Under the pieces are notes generated by a model. The model was not told where the DNA came from. It did no database searches and saw only the letters and a list, made by a program, of their open reading frames with translations. Below are positions 6,448 through 64,000 of a DNA stretch of 64,000 nucleotides, piece by piece (within the stretch, counting starts at the first letter, position 1; every line of letters starts with the position of its first letter). The DNA is from an uncultured bacterium (GTDB lineage: Bacteria; Hydrothermota; UBA3072): positions 63,939 through 127,938 of the forward strand of contig CAZHNS010000003.1 of the NCBI GenBank assembly GCA_964534175.1, written 5' to 3'. The translations under genes were made by a program, and so were the position numbers.

Positions 6448-6782
6448 TCTGGGGCTGGTGGGTTACGGGGTTTGGTGTAATATTTTTGTTCCTGGGGAGC
6501 CTCGGCGTATATAGGATGCCTGACGTATACAATAGATTGCAGGCGGGAACAAAATGTACGACACTTGGCGCTTTCTGTACCATTATTGGTGTTGGAATAA
6601 TAGAGCCTTCCTGGTTCTGGACAACTTTTATAATCGCGGTATTTGTATTATTGACTAACCCAATATCGAGTCATGCACTTGGAAGAGCGTCCTGTATTTC
6701 AAAAGTCAAACTCTGTAAAAAAACAAAGGTTGATCAATCGGAAGGTTTTTGTAGCGAAGGGGATGATGAAGATGATTCTTGA
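6444..6782 (+). CDS. Mrp/Mnh antiporter subunit G-like
   Basis: MnhG-like N-terminus (FLFLGSLGVYRMPDVYNRLQAGTK...); translational coupling. Confidence 0.65.
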   Translation: MIWGWWVTGFGVIFLFLGSLGVYRMPDVYNRLQAGTKCTTLGAFCTIIGVGIIEPSWFWTTFIIAVFVLLTNPISSHALGRASCISKVKLCKKTKVDQSEGFCSEGDDEDDS

Positions 6783-21227: not shown

Positions 21228-21600
21228 TCACCCAATTTCCCGTTCAGGGTACCGTTCTTAAAAATCGTAGTCAATTTCCCCGACGGTCTTATTCGTAAGG
21301 AGTACTGTTCGAGAAAACCAGAGTCAATTCTCCCGGCGAGAGAATTGCTCTTTATCTCTCGCTCTCACTCTTTTCGATTTCTTCAAAATCGAAAAACCGT
21401 GCCCGTTCGAGCTCCGAGGTATTTTCCTGAACAGTACTCCTTACTCATTTTGAAGTTTAAGTCCATGCCCGCTCAGTCTGCGAGACATTTTTTATGAAAG
21501 GCATACCTGGACTTTTAAGATTTGAAGAAAACAAAAAGAAAAACCATGCCCGCTCGGTCTCCGAGGCATTTTTCCTGAACGGTACCCTTCACTTTTTTTT
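21228..21600. repeat. Composite hairpin-rich dispersed element, copy 1 (family A)
   Basis: Shares multiple blocks with 54418-54725 (gtcaatttcccc.acgg; aaggagtactgt...acag(t/c)actcctt outer inverted repeat; ccatgcccgctcg-hairpin-ttttttatgaaaggcat.cctg.acttttaag). Confidence 0.7.
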
Positions 21601-38859: not shown

Positions 38860-39654
38860 ATGCTGTTTTTTCTTTTTTCTTTTTTTCTTCTTTTATTATA
38901 TTTAGCGTTTAAGTGTTATGAACATTTTAAGGTCTATCGTCCGAGAGACAATTTAGTTGCTTTTCCTGACAGCTACAATATAGAATTTGAAGACGTAAAT
39001 TTTTCATCTCGCGATAAAGTTTTGCTCAACGGCTGGTTCATTAAAGGAACTTCCGGGAGAGTTATTCTTTTCTTTCACGGCAATTTTGGTAACATTTCGC
39101 AAAGATTGGATATTATCAATGAGTTGTATTCTCTTGGATATAATGTTTTTATCTTTGATTATAGAGGTTTTGGCAGGAGCAATGGTGTCCCTTCTGAGAA
39201 AGGTTTATACAATGATGCCTTAGGAGCTTATGATTACCTTAAGGAAAGAGGATATAAAAATGAAGATATTATTCTTTTTGGTAGATCTCTGGGCGGTGTT
39301 GTTGCAATATTCCTCGCAAGTGCGGTTAAGGATTTTAGAGGTTTAATAGTCGACAGTTCTTTCTCTTCTGCACAAGATTTAAGTTATGATTTCTTCGGTT
39401 TTAAATTTCCGAGGTTTATAATATCAAACAGGCTTGAGTCCATAAAAAGAATAAAAGATATAAAAATTCCGAAATTAATTGTACACAGTGAAGATGATAA
39501 TTTAATACCTTTTCATCATGGAAAGAGGTTATTTGAGATAGCAAGCGAACCTAAGAAATTTCTAAAGATTAAAGGTTTTCATAATTCTTGTATCCAGGAT
39601 TCTAAAGATATATACATGGCTGGAATTAAGAATTTTTTGGAGAGTTTAGAATGA
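38860..39654 (+). CDS. Alpha/beta hydrolase (BAAT/dienelactone-hydrolase-like)
   Basis: HGNFGN oxyanion region, GRSLGG nucleophile elbow, downstream Asp/His. Confidence 0.7.
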   Translation: MLFFLFSFFLLLLYLAFKCYEHFKVYRPRDNLVAFPDSYNIEFEDVNFSSRDKVLLNGWFIKGTSGRVILFFHGNFGNISQRLDIINELYSLGYNVFIFDYRGFGRSNGVPSEKGLYNDALGAYDYLKERGYKNEDIILFGRSLGGVVAIFLASAVKDFRGLIVDSSFSSAQDLSYDFFGFKFPRFIISNRLESIKRIKDIKIPKLIVHSEDDNLIPFHHGKRLFEIASEPKKFLKIKGFHNSCIQDSKDIYMAGIKNFLESLE

Positions 39655-39929
39655 TGTTTAACCACGAAATACAGTAAACCCCATTCGCTCTTTTTAATTT
39701 GCGTTAAAAAAAACACACGAGAAAACATAATTGATGATTTTAACTCCGTACTCATCATAATTCAGGCATTTATCTTTGCTTTTTTCAAAAACTTATTGAA
39801 TCTGTTATATCCTTCTTTATGCCTGAGGGTTGACATAAATTAAATCCTTAAGTATTTTTAATAATAAAAAGTTAATGCCATTAGATGTTTTTGGTAAAGA
39901 CAAAACTATCACAAAAAAGGAGGTTTTGT

Positions 39930-41240
39930 ATGATTGCTAAATATAAGTTCATGGTACTCTGTTCGGCAATTCTTGTAACTGTGTTGCTTTTTACTTCCTG
40001 CGGCGGTGACATTAGTGGACTTGATCTTATTGAACCAACTGGCGGAGAGGAAGTTTCGTTGCCTGTGTCACTATTCTGGACAAAAGTTGAAGATGCCTCT
40101 GGTTATGCAGTAGAAGTTGATACCGCTACTAATTTTGAATTCCCTGTGGTTTCCGTTGAGGTTTCTGATACCACTTATACTCTGACGGACCTAAATACGC
40201 TTAAATATTACTGGCAGGTCTTTGCGCTTGATGGAAATGGCAGGATGAATGATTTCTCGGCTCTGGACTCCTTTGTGGTCTCAGGCGCTGCGTATCCAAG
40301 GAATCTATTAACAAGTATTCAGGTTTTAGAAGATCCTCAGTCGCTTGACATTACTCCGAATGGTGCAGAGATCTGGGTCAACCACTGGGGGCAGTACGAT
40401 ACCCTTGTTTATGTTATATCGACAGTGAGCAATCAGGTGACCCATACGATTCCGGTTACCAATGTCGGTGATAATGAGTTGAGAATTACCAGTGATGGTA
40501 ATTTTGCCTACTACTGCGGTGTCTGGAATATGGATAGTGCCGGTATCCTCGAAATTTCTACGTCTGGTTATAACCAGACGAGGGTACTCGGATATCTTGA
40601 AGGTGAAGATCCGCCGGTTAAGGTTGGCCCGGAAGGCTACGGGGTGGCATTGACCCAAGTGAACGACATCATCTATGCAGCGCATATGGCGACGGCCGGG
40701 GACGGCTGTATCACGAAGTTCGATGTCTCGAGCGGGGCATTGATCGACAGCGTTCTTCTGCCCTGGATCATGGATGTCGACCTGAACCACGCCGAGACAA
40801 AACTCTATGCGGTCAACCAGAGCGATGACATCTTCTATGAACTCGATCCAACGACGATGACTGTCAACCGACAACTTTCGGTCGGTAACGGACCCGAGCT
40901 TATTCTGATCACTTCTGATGATGAATATGCTTTTATTTCGCATCTTAATGATGATGTTTATGTTGTTGATCTCTCAAGTCTTACGAAAGTTACTCAATTT
41001 GATCCGGATATTGGGGAATTTGGTATGGCTTTTACCCCGGATGAGAAATATCTTTTCTTGTGCGATTACGGTTCTGATTATATCAGCGTTTACGATGTTG
41101 ACGACCCAACGAATCCGGTTATGATTGAGAAACTCGAGTTTACGGATGCTGGTTCGTTCACTGAACTTGTTTTTAATGCCGATGGTTCCCGAGCCTATGT
41201 AGTCGAGTCTCACGGCTATATATATGTTTTAGAGAAGTAA
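39930..41240 (+). CDS. Lipoprotein with beta-propeller (YVTN/lactonase-like) repeats; contains ~320-bp high-GC mosaic segment
   Basis: Lipobox LFTSCGG; start at ATG 39930 (RBS AAGGAGG) rather than ORF-track 39885; segment ~40590-40910 is ~55% GC with GC3-rich codons. Confidence 0.5.
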   Translation: MIAKYKFMVLCSAILVTVLLFTSCGGDISGLDLIEPTGGEEVSLPVSLFWTKVEDASGYAVEVDTATNFEFPVVSVEVSDTTYTLTDLNTLKYYWQVFALDGNGRMNDFSALDSFVVSGAAYPRNLLTSIQVLEDPQSLDITPNGAEIWVNHWGQYDTLVYVISTVSNQVTHTIPVTNVGDNELRITSDGNFAYYCGVWNMDSAGILEISTSGYNQTRVLGYLEGEDPPVKVGPEGYGVALTQVNDIIYAAHMATAGDGCITKFDVSSGALIDSVLLPWIMDVDLNHAETKLYAVNQSDDIFYELDPTTMTVNRQLSVGNGPELILITSDDEYAFISHLNDDVYVVDLSSLTKVTQFDPDIGEFGMAFTPDEKYLFLCDYGSDYISVYDVDDPTNPVMIEKLEFTDAGSFTELVFNADGSRAYVVESHGYIYVLEK

Positions 41241-41248
41241 TCTGCTCC

Positions 41249-41299
41249 GAAGATATTTATATAGCTGGAATTAAGGATTTTCTGGATAGCCTGGAATAG
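41249..41299 (+). pseudogene. Remnant duplicate of the 3' end of the alpha/beta hydrolase gene (EDIYIAGIKDFLDSLE*)
   Basis: About 80% nucleotide identity to 39603-39654 (KDIYMAGIKNFLESLE*) including stop; no upstream ORF. Confidence 0.5.
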
Positions 41300-41365
41300 T
41301 GAGACGGAAAAGGATTGATACGGATATTCAAAGAGAGAAAGGAGCATAAAGAGAAGTCAGAGCCG

Positions 41366-41510
41366 TCGAAAATTAAAAATCAAATATCAAAGTGCAAAAT
41401 TACAAATCAAAGTTCAAAAATGAAATAAAAACGAAAAACTTTAAAGGACATGATGTAATTTTGCATTTTTATTTGGCGTTTTACTTTTTAAATTTTAATA
41501 TTTAAATTTC
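41366..41510. repeat. AT-rich imperfect palindromic dispersed element, copy 1 (family B), ~110 nt upstream of lolC/E
   Basis: aaattaaaaatcaaa...acaaatcaaagttcaaaaatgaa / ...attttgcatttttat...ttttaaattttaatattt; arms are mutual reverse complements; shared with 50942-51090 and 56306-56485. Confidence 0.65.
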
Positions 41511-41621
41511 ATAAAAAATTTGGGAGTTCTTACAGCATATTTTGGTGTATTTGTTTGAAATTCAATGCTATGATACACATTACCCCCTTGCCCAAAGATA
41601 TAAAAAGGATATACTGATTAT

Positions 41622-50875: not shown

Positions 50876-50941
50876 AATTCTTACTTTTTAAAGTTGAGTC
50901 GGGTGCAAACAAATAAGCGACTCGGGTATCCAAATTTGTCG

Positions 50942-51090
50942 AAATTTAAAAATCAAAAATCAAAATGTAAAAATACAAATCAAAGTTCAAAAATGAATAC
51001 AAGAATCCGCAAGAATTTAAAAAGCATGAGACAATTTTGCATTTTTATATGTAATTTTGCTTTTTAATTTTTAATATTTTATTTCCCATG
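50942..51090. repeat. AT-rich imperfect palindromic dispersed element, copy 2 (family B), ~40 nt upstream of rluD
   Basis: aaatttaaaaatcaaaaatcaaaatgtaaaaatacaaatcaaagttcaaaaatgaata...attttgcatttttatatgtaattttgctttttaatttttaatatttt. Confidence 0.65.
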
Positions 51091-54386: not shown

Positions 54387-54417
54387 TCATTACTTATATC
54401 AGAAGATTTTATAGACT

Positions 54418-54725
54418 TGGTCAATTTCCCCAACGGTGACCGTTCGGGGTACCACTACGAAAAACCGCAGTCAGTTTCCCCTGCGGGTGATTCGCAAGGA
54501 GTACTGTCCTAGAAAGACGTGGTCAATTTCCCCAGCGAGGAAATTGCCACTCGGCTCTCGGGTTCGCTCCTCTTAAAATGCAAGCATTTTAAGAGACCAT
54601 GCTCGCTCACCCTGCGAGACGCTTTCTTGGACAGCACTCCTTGTTCATTTTATTGATAAAAATCCATGCCCGCTCGTCTCCGAGCATTTTTTATGAAAGG
54701 CATTCCTGTACTTTTGGAATTTAAA
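54418..54725. repeat. Composite hairpin-rich dispersed element, copy 2 (family A), between topA and gltX
   Basis: Block-wise homology to 21228-21600; inner stems differ in sequence but stay complementary. Confidence 0.7.
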
Positions 54726-56266: not shown

Positions 56267-56305
56267 AATTGTATATGTAGAACCAGGCTAGGCAACACCG
56301 CTACA

Positions 56306-56485
56306 ATTTAAAAATTAAATATTAAAATGAAAAATGACAAATCAAAGTTCAAAATGAATAAAAAAACAGAGAAACAACTAATCACACGAATAATACAAAT
56401 ATTTTTTTTGTGGTTAGGGTAGGGGTATGATTTTGCATTTTTATATGTCATTTTGCTTTTTGAATTTTGATATTTGATTTACTAA
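56306..56485. repeat. AT-rich imperfect palindromic dispersed element, copy 3 (family B), ~80 nt upstream of ppiD-like gene
   Basis: aaaaattaaatattaaaatgaaaaatgacaaatcaaagttcaaaatgaata...gattttgcatttttatatgtcattttgctttttgaattttgatattt; variable centre contains gtggttagggtaggg. Confidence 0.65.
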
Positions 56486-56567
56486 TAGAAAGCTGTATAA
56501 TTAAAGAAGATTTTTTTTGCAAAAAAACAAAAAGTTGATTGATAATACTGTAAGGAGGTAAGTGGTT

Positions 56568-61111: not shown

Positions 61112-64000
61112 TCAAAGAACGGTTTTTTGTCTCTTTATATCATGTTCTTTAATTAGACGGTATAAGTGTCTTCGGGAGATCTTGAGAGTTTTTGCCGCTT
61201 CGGTCACGTTGCCTCCGCTATCCTGAAGAGCTTCTATTATGGTTTCTTTTTTCCATGTTGTTTTTATTTTATCCCAGCTGGGAGTCTCTGCTTTTTTCTT
61301 TTTTCTCATTTCTTCGGGAAGGTCTTTTTGGTTTATGTAATTTCCTTTACATCTAATGAGTGAAATTTCCACGATATTTTTGAGCTCTCGTATATTTCCC
61401 GGAAAAGGATAATTTCTTAAAATTCTCATGGCATTCTCGTCAAAACCCTCTATCTTTTTTTCTTTTTTTCCGGAGAAAATCTTTAAATAATGTTTAAGCA
61501 GAAGAGTTACATCTATTTTCCGTTCACGGAGAGGCGGTATAGTTATATTTATCTGATTCAACCTGTATAAAAGGTCTTCTCTAAATTCCCGCAGCATCGC
61601 AGCCTGTTCAATGTCTCTGTTAGTTGCGGATATTATACGGACGTCCACTTTTTTGCTTTCGGTTTCTCCCACCCTTCTGATTTCTCCCCTGTCGGTAACC
61701 CGGAGAAGTCCCGCTTGTATGGAGTGAGGTGCGTCTCCGATTTCATCCAGGAAGAGAGTCCCGCCGTTTGCTTCTTCGAACATACCTTTTTTATCCTTTA
61801 TTGCTCCGGTGAATGAACCTTTTTTATGTCCGAATAATTCGCTCTGAAGGAGAGTTTCTGTAAGAGAACTGCAGTCCACCGTTATGAAGGGTCTATTGTT
61901 CCTCTTGCTCAATTTGTGAATAGTTCTGGCAACGAGTTCTTTTCCGGTTCCTGTTTCGCCCATAATTAGAACATTTACGTCAGTTTCTGCAATTTCTTCT
62001 ATTGTTCTGTAAATCTTCTGCATTTGTTCCGAGATGCCTATTATAGAATAAAAAGATTCGGGAGGAGAAGTCATCCGTTTTAGCTGTTTCACCTCTTCTC
62101 TCATTTTGTAAAGAAGATCGCCCTTCGAGAAAAGAACGCCCAGAATTCTTCCTATAGATTGCAGGAATTCCTTGTCCGAAGGTAAAAATATGTCCTTTTT
62201 TATGGTAGAATCCAGGTAAAGAACACCGTAAATTTCCTCTTCAGAAGTTATAGGAACGCATAGAATGGATCGAATTTTATTTCTCTGTATCGAATCCATC
62301 TCCAAAAATCTCGAGTCCTGAAAAGCATCTGCTGCGATTATTACCTCTCCTTTCGCGGCTTTTTTGGTTATTGTCGAGGATATTCTTCTTGCGTCTTCAA
62401 GAGTCGCATCATCGATGTTGTGAGAGGATACTATAATATTTCTTTCTTCTTCTTTTAGTATTATTGCGCCTCTTTCTGCTTTGAAAAAGTTTGTAAGCAC
62501 GGATAGAGCTTCATCGAACCTTTTCTCGGAGTCTATCGAGGAAAGAAGTTTACTTATTTCATCATAAGTGTGTATGTATCCGCTTCTAAGAGATGTTTTT
62601 TTTGCGCATTCCACAAAAAGGTCTCTCGTTTTTTCGAGAAAAAGAGCTGATTTTAATTCTTTGAATGTAATCTCGCTCTTTTTTAACTCTTCGATTGCTT
62701 CCTCGATTTTGTTTTCTCCTAAAAGGATTTTAGACTTATTAAGTCTTGCTCGTGCGGTGTAAAAAGGAAGACCTGTTCTAGTAAAAAGTCGAATAGCTTC
62801 ATTTACGGATTTAATATCTTCGCTAATAAGGCCCCAGGAAGAGAGTAATTTTCCCTTTTCAAAGTCTGATTGAATCGATTTGATTTTTTCTTTGTGAGGC
62901 TTTAAAACAGTTACAGCTTCTTCTTTTTTGCCCTGTGTGAGCAAAACTTCCGAAAGCCGCCAGGCAATATCTCTTTCTCTTCTGGGATCGTCTTTTGACT
63001 TTTTAATAAATTTTTTGAAAATTTCTTCCGCTTTTTCCCACTCGCCTTTAAAAGCAAAAAGTATGCCTTCCCCTTCTTCAAGGTTGTATTTTTCATCATT
63101 TAATTCACGTTTTATTTTCTCAGCCTCTTCCAAATTTCCTATAAAAAGCTTACTGAAAAAATATCTTTCCTTTAATGTTGGAGACAATTTCCCGTATCTA
63201 TTTTTAAAGTCTTCTATTCTTTCCTGTAGTTTTTCCCAATAGCCAATTCTCAAATAGACGATAGAAAGATTTGCTAGACAATGGTATTCAAAGTTTCCGA
63301 TTTTAAGTTTTTTGAACAAAGAAAGAGCTTCTTCTAATTCTTCTAAAGCCTCTTTGTATTTATCAAGTAAGAGAAGAGAAATCCCTTTGTAATTTGTAAA
63401 TGTTCCCTCATGCATGAGGTCTTTCTCTTCCTTTGCAATATCTATACATTTCTGGAAGTATTGGATTGCTTCTTTATGTTCTTCGTTTTGCTGTTTTGCT
63501 ATACCACCGAGAGTCAAAAAATGTTTTTTCATTTCAGGTGTAAGGTCTTTGGCTAGTTCTTCTTCGACGATTTTTAAAGTTTTTTCAAACTCTCCTTTGG
63601 TGCATAAAAGCCTGCCCTTGATAAACTTAAGTCGTAAAGGAAGTTGTCCTTCCGTCTTTTTAAAACCGGATAGGATTTTAGAGATTTCTTTTGTTTCCCC
63701 CTTTCTGATTAAAAGATATCCCAGGTGATAGATAGCCTGTTCTTTTGCTTTGCCTTTCGAAATTTTAACGGCTTTTCTGAAATATTTCTCGGCTTTTTCT
63801 TTATTCCCGGTTCTATCTTCTATCGTCCCCAATTTCAAAAGATAAAAGGGTTTTTCTTCCTTAGAGAGAAGTTCTTTATAAATAGATAATGACTCGTTAA
63901 TATTTCCGGTGCTCTCGAGAAGCCTTGCAAGAATAATACGATTATTCTTGTTATCCTGTAAGGAAAGAGCTTCTTTTAGGAATTTAATCGCCCCAGGATA
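61112..64000 (-). CDS. Sigma54-dependent transcriptional activator with N-terminal TPR repeats and GAF domain; 5' end beyond window
   Basis: AAA+ sigma54-interaction domain ([14 protein letters not shown]-like loop), C-terminal Fis HTH ([19 protein letters not shown]), central GAF, long TPR region; minus-strand frame stays open to 64000. Confidence 0.85.

Follow-up and report, generated by a model that had tools for sequence, protein, structure and literature searches.

Intergenic inverted-repeat elements in a Hydrothermota contig, probably remnants of a hairpin-bounded four-helix-bundle gene cassette

In this work, we describe three short inverted-repeat elements, here called c1, c2 and c3, in a stretch of 64,000 nucleotides (hereafter the window; positions 63,939 to 127,938 of contig CAZHNS010000003.1, assembly GCA_964534175.1) from an uncultured bacterium of the Hydrothermota lineage UBA3072, together with the gene cassette from which they probably derive. 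An earlier note, made from the letters alone, had pointed to three copies of an AT-rich imperfect palindrome, its "Family B", each just before a plus-strand gene. Three such elements are indeed present in the 64 kb, 142 to 181 bp long, all on the plus strand and in the same orientation (Table 1). The genes following them were confirmed as LolE-like (MacB_PCD/FtsX), RluD-like and PpiD-like, the next start codon being found 112, 41 and 79 nt beyond c1, c2 and c3, respectively. The ClpC encoded in the window is 93% identical to a protein annotated as WOR-3, and the source is accordingly taken as a bacterium of candidate division WOR-3. A scan of the window for tRNA and tmRNA found none, and no rRNA was found by the Rfam scan; Rfam covariance models gave no match at gathering score and, at E ≤ 1, chance-level matches only.

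Each element consists of two arms enclosing a centre. The left arms are A-rich and share an invariant 18-mer, ACAAATCAAAGTTCAAAA, while the right arms are T-rich and share an invariant 15-mer, ATTTTGCATTTTTAT. The arms had been described as approximate reverse complements of each other, and they do form imperfect inverted repeats, 72-77% complementary over about 55 nt; the centres, of about 30, 33 and 70 nt, are unlike in length and sequence, as also previously noted. Profile hidden Markov models (HMMs) of the arms, built from family members, recognize three arms of each kind in the 64 kb and no more, with E values from 1e-9 to 1e-13, the next-best match having E > 5. When up to 3 mismatches are allowed, the ACAAATCAAAGTTCAAAA pattern has 6 matches in the window vs 0.48 expected, and none of 100 shuffled sequences reaches 6. 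A chance similarity of low-complexity sequence, which had been named as the alternative to a true family, is ruled out by the shuffles and the HMM matches, and also because other genomes contain these arms at 86 or more places.

These places were found by scanning 185,579 species genomes for the exact 18-mer: at least 117 stretches were recovered, within which the left-arm HMM recognizes at least 86 true copies, the rest (in Levilactobacillus, for example) being coincidences in coding sequences. Among the matches listed, most copies belong to nine unclassified "binchicken" metagenome-assembled genomes (MAGs), and alignments of several of these with the window show 78-90% nucleotide identity; the other hosts, by MAG label, are WOR-3, KSB1, Omnitrophota, Dehalococcoidia, Pirellulales, Sedimentisphaerales, Ratteibacteria and Patescibacteria. 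A single MAG, CAZALG, contains at least 14 copies. Phages, plasmids and viruses were considered as carriers and ruled out by the absence of true copies: the 17 matches of the 18-mer in viral contigs all lie in unrelated coding sequences, and blastn against phage and plasmid collections returned nothing. Arm subtypes specific to a phylum were observed in Dehalococcoidia (loci L017, L003, L086 and L098, with a left arm reading ..AAAGATAAAAAATCAAAATTACAAATCAAAGTTCAAAATTAAGG..) and Planctomycetota (L004 and L107), and argue for long residence in each lineage, not for mis-binning.

The origin of the arms is suggested by locus L092, where the same two arms enclose an intact open reading frame (ORF) of 123 codons, with its ATG inside the left arm and its stop codon formed by the first bases of the right arm. 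The encoded protein matches two profiles, PF05635 at E 4e-16 ("23S rRNA-intervening sequence protein") and TIGR02436 at 69 bits vs a cut-off of 24 ("four helix bundle protein"), of a family that took its first name from the ORF of 23S rRNA intervening sequences; parent ORFs exceed the curated family cut-offs (59.5 bits vs 33.8; 69.4 vs 24), and a solved structural relative of the four-helix-bundle (4HB) protein is PDB entry 2RLD. The invariant 18-mer encodes (Y/D)-K-S-K-F-K. A protein search retrieved 2326 proteins at E ≤ 0.001, the best 120 of which are at least 75% identical and start with M(Q/E/K)ND(K/R)SKFKNEF; longer N-termini (MQKSNIKMQND..) are the translated outer left arm. A match to a defence-system protein was at chance level only (PADLOC), and this assignment was discarded.

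A metagenome scan added 80 further loci which, with four others, provide about 60 distinct intact genes. In most of these the left-arm match runs from about ATG-24 to ATG+30 and the right-arm match begins at the stop codon. The intact cassette, about 480 nt long, is thus composed of an A-rich leader, the 123-codon ORF and a T-rich trailer; leader and codons 1-10 make up the left arm, which is an imperfect reverse complement of the roughly 55 nt from the stop codon onwards. Since the arms span the start and stop regions of the 4HB gene, they are an integral part of its 5' and 3' ends. Intact examples come from a Sedimentisphaerales MAG (L128), a WOR-3 MAG (L130) and an unclassified JGI metagenome contig (L118). 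The 4HB gene, of 123 amino acids, is the sole cargo: in about 60 independent intact cassettes the arms enclose no other ORF, and no transposase or integrase. Upstream of the left arm, L118 and L092 have a TTGACA-16-TATAAT promoter and a small GC hairpin, of which the window copies keep at most a remnant.

Traces of this gene can be followed within the window copies. The start-codon position of c1 is occupied by GTG (41392-41394), followed by CAA AAT TAC AAA TCA AAG TTC AAA AAT; at the other end, its ORF relic ..CTTTAAAGGACATGATGTAA corresponds to ..CGTTAAAGGGCAAGAGATAA in L092, about 300 nt of the ORF being gone. The relic ATG of c2 (50965-50967) has a TAA directly after it, while that of c3 (56327-56329) is followed by AAA AAT GAC AAA TCA AAG TTC AAA, where the frame is broken by a 1-nt deletion. 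Beyond the left arm, c1, c2 and L061, the c2 orthologue, retain further 5' codons (NEYK, NEFKK), and beside the right arm the final ~7 (..L-K-G-K-R-stop). L064 and L111 similarly carry ORF codons outside both the left and the right arm. The presence in c1 and c2 of terminal codons from both ends of the ORF identifies them as relics of internal deletion. Of the 4HB coding sequence, no more than ~10-15 codons at the start and ~7 at the end survive in the window, where tblastn with the L092 protein finds no match and no ORF scores as TIGR02436 or PF05635.

Table 1. Coordinates and composition of the three elements and of the modules adjoining them
Feature	Position in the window	Strand	Description and evidence
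c1	41369-41510	+	flanked by lactonase-like gene and lolE
c1 left arm	41369-41422	+	5' leader, start codon and first ~10 codons of 4HB gene; left-arm HMM E 3e-13; ORF-start homology in L092/L118
c1 centre	41423-41454	+	relics: few 5' codons and last ~7 codons of 4HB ORF; direct sequence comparison
c1 right arm	41455-41510	+	stop codon and 3' trailer of 4HB cassette; right-arm HMM E 4e-9
c2	50941-51088	+	flanked by RNase PH and rluD
c2 left arm	50941-50995	+	left-arm HMM E 1e-11; orthologous site in L061, L228 conserved at 89%
c2 centre	50996-51029	+	relic codons AAT GAA TAC AAG (NEYK) on 5' side; ..TTTAAAAAGCATGAGACAA from 3' end of ORF
c2 right arm	51030-51088	+	right-arm HMM E 1e-11; 87-90% identical to orthologous copies vs flanks 58-63%
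GC-hairpin remnant before c3 left arm	56287-56301	+	small hairpin GCGCGGCAAAGCCGC in intact cassettes
c3	56303-56483	+	flanked by gltX and ppiD
c3 left arm	56303-56355	+	left-arm HMM E 2e-10
c3 centre	56356-56426	+	no ORF but other repeat modules, namely one half of the second inverted-repeat module, GAAACAACTAATCACACGAATA (56371-56392), plus a G-rich GGTTAGGGTAGGGG module
c3 right arm	56427-56483	+	right-arm HMM E 3e-12
Right-hand extension of c3	56484-56546	+	travels with c3-type elements and intact cassettes

"Family B" is best explained as a set of ORF-less relics of the 4HB cassette, and we consider it probable that all three window copies are gutted forms of a hairpin-bounded 4HB gene (TIGR02436/PF05635) behaving as a passenger with an RNA stem. 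The opposite history, in which the hairpin was the ancestral mobile unit and some copies captured a 4HB ORF into their loop, appears very improbable. It would agree with the excess of ORF-less over intact copies in WOR-3-like MAGs (among the matches listed, only 1 of the 14 copies in CAZALG is intact) and with the ability of the loops to accept foreign modules. However, the left arm codes for the N-terminal residues conserved in the protein family, and the stop codon opens the right arm; the ORF codons retained outside both arms in c1, c2, L061, L064 and L111, as well as the arm-plus-ORF architecture in distant lineages (Sedimentisphaerales, WOR-3 and others), speak for the gene having come first. 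Several different deletion junctions were found among the short elements, and loss of the ORF must therefore be recurrent; a single shared junction, which would show that miniatures multiply as miniatures, was looked for and not seen.

The centres of the family are a mosaic of other recurring modules. In c3-type loops (56371-56392 in the window; L014, L048, L096, L097, L110 and others) a second inverted-repeat module, AACAACGAATCACACGAAT ... TTTGTGCAATTTGTTGTT, was observed; the retrieved loci contain 46 of its left halves, with a matching right half within 2.5 kb for 18 only. Further recurring modules are CACAGAGGACACAGAG and AAATCTGCGTTTATCTGCGTCC, to which L107, a copy from Planctomycetota, adds GTCATTGCGAG...CTCGCAATGAC. 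In these phyla, the DNA between genes is built as a nested mosaic of hairpin modules. Another module is the conserved extension of ~60-85 nt to the right of the right arm, found in c3-type relics and intact cassettes, within which sits a perfect palindrome, TTTTTTTGCAAAAAAA (T7-GC-A7), at 56513-56536 in the window and 2955-2978 in L118, and also in L065, L092 and L019; this palindrome could be an operator or promoter module.

Comparison of orthologous sites indicates that both old and polymorphic insertions occur. The c3 element is common to the window and L019, while L065 is filled with a c3-type element at a site (49035) which in the window is a spacer of 22 nt; similarly, L029 is filled and L074 empty at an orthologous site. 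The c2 site is filled in the window, in L061 and in L228, the latter with a different centre, and is empty in L229 and L230, even though the ClpC of L230 is 93% identical to that of the window. In L128, an intact cassette lies between mbhE and mnhB, two genes that share an ATGA overlap in L236 and are separated by 57 nt in L231. Filled and empty sites do exist. No target-site duplication was visible in five filled/empty comparisons, where the partners are only 78-93% related and the spacers have diverged.

These data bear on the proposal, made in the earlier note, of a miniature inverted-repeat transposable element (MITE) or a large hairpin. Part of it stands, as the elements are a dispersed repeat family with conserved inverted-repeat arms, a free centre and hairpin potential, and behave as ORF-less miniatures of something larger; the parent, however, is a 4HB gene and not a transposase-bearing insertion sequence. 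For a classical DNA MITE, the arms would serve, as double-stranded DNA, as terminal inverted repeats for a transposase acting in trans to bind, with two or three ~20-nt sub-repeats per arm as at Tn7 or Mu ends, and the 4HB ORF would be cargo. Dispersal and insertion polymorphism fit such a scheme, as do the ~20-nt internal periodicity of each arm, the conservation of arm mismatches, expected if left and right ends are recognised separately, and the weak tie of short-copy orientation to neighbouring genes. We nonetheless regard it as quite unlikely, given the missing transposase or integrase in all those intact cassettes, the failure to see a target-site duplication in the five filled/empty comparisons, the lack of matches in phage, plasmid and viral collections, and the overlap of the arms with the start codon, ten conserved codons and the stop codon. 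Orientation of the intact cassettes also argues against it: cassette and upstream gene share a strand in 58 of 62 cases and lie on opposite strands in 4, and this co-directionality with the operon points to a constraint acting on the transcript.

Further details of the neighbourhood of the insertions were collected. At the place taken by c1 in the window (41240-41620), the lactonase-like gene of L228 is followed by a canonical GC-rich intrinsic terminator, AAGCTCCCGGGAGAACCCCGGGAGCTTTTT (6480-6520), and L230 has only the distal half of a right arm plus a hairpin module of the CACAGAG type. The lactonase-like gene itself (39885-41240) is missing from L229 and L230; the 3' end of the preceding abhydrolase gene (39610-39654) is repeated beyond it, as ~50 nt of diverged sequence, at 41250-41312, and the arrangement, just upstream of c1, resembles the insertion of a gene, ~1.6 kb in all, with a direct repeat on either side. 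A small GIY-YIG ORF occurs in the cassette-bearing mbh/mrp operon (L128 5507-5725, L129 5423-5725, L234 3182-3484), with or without the cassette, and the operon therefore hosts two independent passenger genes. Finally, contig CAYQMH010000039 of a related MAG begins (L065, 1-94) inside the right arm of the c1 orthologue; these repeats appear to break short-read assemblies.

Returning to the 4HB cassette, the ability of its arms to pair was evaluated in both short and intact copies. In a fixed register, 47 short elements show 71% Watson-Crick pairs vs at most 50% on register shift; in 51 intact cassettes, 74.5% of the cells are paired vs at most 58% with a slid register. In the latter set 23 pairs show double changes, vs 17.3 in shuffles (a value reached by 1 of 500), and the covariation score is 0.100 vs 0.087 (4 of 500); covariation support for the stem is modest. 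The arms of the divergent L202 and L209 pair through different sequences. The AUG remains unpaired; it faces mismatches that are conserved, T-T in 49 and G-A in 38 of the 51 intact cassettes. Minimum free energy and centroid folds of the full cassette both pair the left arm with the right one. Among the window copies, predicted folding holds for c1 (-25 kcal/mol, z -3.2) and c3 (-35, z -3.8), but not for c2 (-17, z -0.7), which folds no better than shuffled sequence. G-U pairs were considered as a sign of strand-specific RNA and rejected for the short elements, where they are equally frequent on both strands (4.5% and 4.7%); intact cassettes show a mild plus-strand excess, 116 vs 75.

Intact cassettes follow the transcription of their neighbours on both sides, the downstream gene being on the same strand in 58 of 63 cases and on the opposite one in 5. 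In 28 of 58, the upstream stop codon is found 20-27 nt before the cassette ATG, and a Shine-Dalgarno-like motif is present in 3 of 54. Among the 86 short elements listed, the upstream gene is on the same strand in 52 cases and on the opposite one in 26, while the downstream gene is on the same strand in 39 and on the opposite one in 34. The placement of the three window copies, always upstream of a plus-strand gene, had suggested a rule and a role as promoter donor: the rule does not survive these counts, and the promoter idea finds no family-wide support, promoter-like hexamers near c1, c2 and c3 being no commoner than in shuffled sequence. Terminator-like sites at the three copies are likewise not above shuffled sequence. 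Among short elements, the conserved right extension with sigma70-like hexamers belongs to the c3 subtype only; in c3 these are TTGATT-16-TATAAT (56474-56501; 10 of 12 matches) and TTGCAA-18-GATAAT (56517-56546).

A host regulatory element, with arms kept as promoter or UP element, bidirectional terminator or attenuator, or mRNA-stabilising hairpin for the housekeeping neighbours, is in our view unlikely. In its favour, among three species the arms at the orthologous c2 site are conserved better than the spacers next to them (85-90% vs 57-66% identity), the two hexamer pairs of the c3-type extension are conserved, L228 has a canonical terminator where the window has c1, and short elements lie twice as often after a same-strand gene as before one. 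Close relatives, however, lack the element at the same sites, as L230 does at the c2 site; promoter- and terminator-like sites show no enrichment over shuffled sequence, a GC-rich stem with a T-run behind it is missing, and orientation to the downstream gene is random among the matches listed. In addition, a host-adapted promoter would not explain an arm sequence that several phyla have conserved and that is bound up with the coding sequence of the 4HB protein.

Under the reading that we prefer, of relics of a 4HB cassette, the arms would form an RNA stem in the operon transcript, an A-U-rich duplex of ~50 bp resembling, by analogy, the stems of rRNA intervening sequences cut by RNase III. In an intact cassette the stem would mask the 4HB start codon until a ribosome finishing the upstream gene opens it, coupling the translation of the two genes, and would keep the insertion cheap for the host operon. 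The cassette would be a selfish passenger, spreading by a route that needs no transposase, and repeated internal deletion of its ORF would leave behind MITE-like hairpin relics. Those in the window are probably co-transcribed with lolE, rluD and ppiD, and may at most modulate mRNA processing, stability or read-through.

A number of points weigh against this scheme. The stem is A-U rich and ~25% mismatched, A-rich and T-rich arms pair well even when shuffled (73.9%), and the full-cassette fold has a z of only -1.4. RNAalifold finds no consensus structure in the arm alignment of the intact cassettes, for which reason pairs were counted for the named structure instead. The 47 short elements show conserved mismatch positions and no compensatory changes, and the relics may therefore be under no structural selection. 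Conservation of the arms could result from recent spread or gene conversion and not from function, and the varied junctions fit either miniatures multiplying as such or their repeated origin by deletion. Recruitment by an exact 18-mer biases the sample toward conserved left arms, the gene contexts come from a crude ORF caller, and we infer both the RNase III cleavage and the translational coupling.

The window contains other repeats. A second family, at 21249-21600 and 54400-54700, is formed by GC-richer units with GGTCAATTTCCCC, ~52 nt apart; it lies between topA and gltX and again ~33 kb upstream, and is probably the "Family A" of the earlier note. Between 24890 and 26780, at least 9 tandem repeats of ~159-162 nt, 60-80% mutually identical, look like a gene for a repeat-domain protein.

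More generally, questions about rRNA intervening sequences, their origin, their mobility and what their 4HB ORF does, date from the early 1990s (PMC4990558). The cassettes supply hundreds of natural variants for covariation analysis and filled/empty comparison, and a concrete model of expression, a stem-masked AUG opened by the upstream ribosome. Recognition of 4HB relics would also explain abundant intergenic repeats of candidate phyla, otherwise annotated as anonymous MITEs or spurious small ORFs, and bears on MAG quality because contigs break at these repeats. As a tentative and rather doubtful extension, genes for 4HB "intervening sequence proteins" might constitute a distinct class of transposase-free, operon-riding selfish elements, made of ~480-nt stem-closed cassettes with coupled translation and MITE-like relics, the 23S intervening sequence being the same element in an rRNA operon; the class would extend to WOR-3, Planctomycetota, Chloroflexota, Omnitrophota, KSB1 and the candidate phyla radiation (CPR). 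In this extension the Avd-like protein itself could be the mobility factor, for instance through binding to the hairpin RNA of its own cassette and recruitment of a reverse transcriptase or of the recombination machinery. In the literature searched, neither free-standing, arm-bounded 4HB cassettes nor miniatures of them were found described, which is absence of evidence from a limited library.

The nearest described relatives are the ORF-bearing intervening sequences (IVSs) of 23S rRNA in Coxiella burnetii, Leptospira, and Brucella and Xanthomonas relatives (PMC4990558, PMC11270868). In the 428-nt Coxiella IVS, terminal inverted repeats form a stem with an S23p ORF in the loop; the Shine-Dalgarno sequence is poor, heptamer repeats precede the ATG, RNase III cuts the IVS out and the ORF is in reductive evolution (PMC4990558). 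The cassettes share with these IVSs the ORF family (PF05635/S23p/four-helix bundle) and a length of ~430-480 nt, complementary termini closing a stem around the loop ORF, short A-rich repeats before the ATG, a poor or absent Shine-Dalgarno sequence, ORF decay and suspected mobility (PMC4990558; PMC11270868). Unlike IVSs, for which RNase III excision has been shown, the elements described here lie between protein-coding genes of ordinary operons and not at rRNA helix 25 or 45, possess a distinct conserved arm family overlapping the first ten codons, and leave ORF-less relics dispersed at many loci per genome. The window copies lack the IVS loop ORF, while their parents (L092, L118, L128, L130 and ~60 metagenome loci) encode a PF05635 ORF.

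Short ORF-less IVS hairpins are known from enterobacterial and Campylobacter rRNA genes. By description the window copies resemble them, being hairpins of ~100-200 nt without ORF; those of enterobacteria, Campylobacter and CPR, however, occupy the fixed rRNA helices 25 and 45, whereas the window copies are intergenic in mRNA operons. In nature the short hairpins coexist with ORF-bearing versions (PMC11270868). A distant relationship in fold and family also links the 4HB protein to Avd of diversity-generating retroelements, the connection between PF05635 and Avd having been stated before (PMC10053308), but the match to NF033474, 19.8 bits, is far below the family cut-off of 80; neither reverse transcriptase nor template or variable repeats were seen beside the examined cassettes, whose neighbours are ordinary operon genes.

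In size and distribution, the relics recall the MITE-like palindromes of other bacteria. Correia/NEMIS in Neisseria, BOX in pneumococcus, ERIC and RPE are small AT-rich imperfect palindromes, with many intergenic copies that are present or absent according to strain; BOX is modular, or mosaic, MITE-like palindromes are co-transcribed with their neighbours, and Correia elements are cut by RNase III. Two features of a MITE are present here, with imperfect terminal inverted repeats of ~55 nt and at least 86 dispersed copies differing in presence and absence. The differences lie in a parent which encodes a 4HB protein only, in the filled/empty comparisons, where neither a TA nor any other target duplication was seen, and in near-identical arm cores shared by several phyla, which is unusual for MITEs. 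Since the window copies lie outside rRNA and their parent has no transposase, we file them in neither the IVS nor the MITE family.

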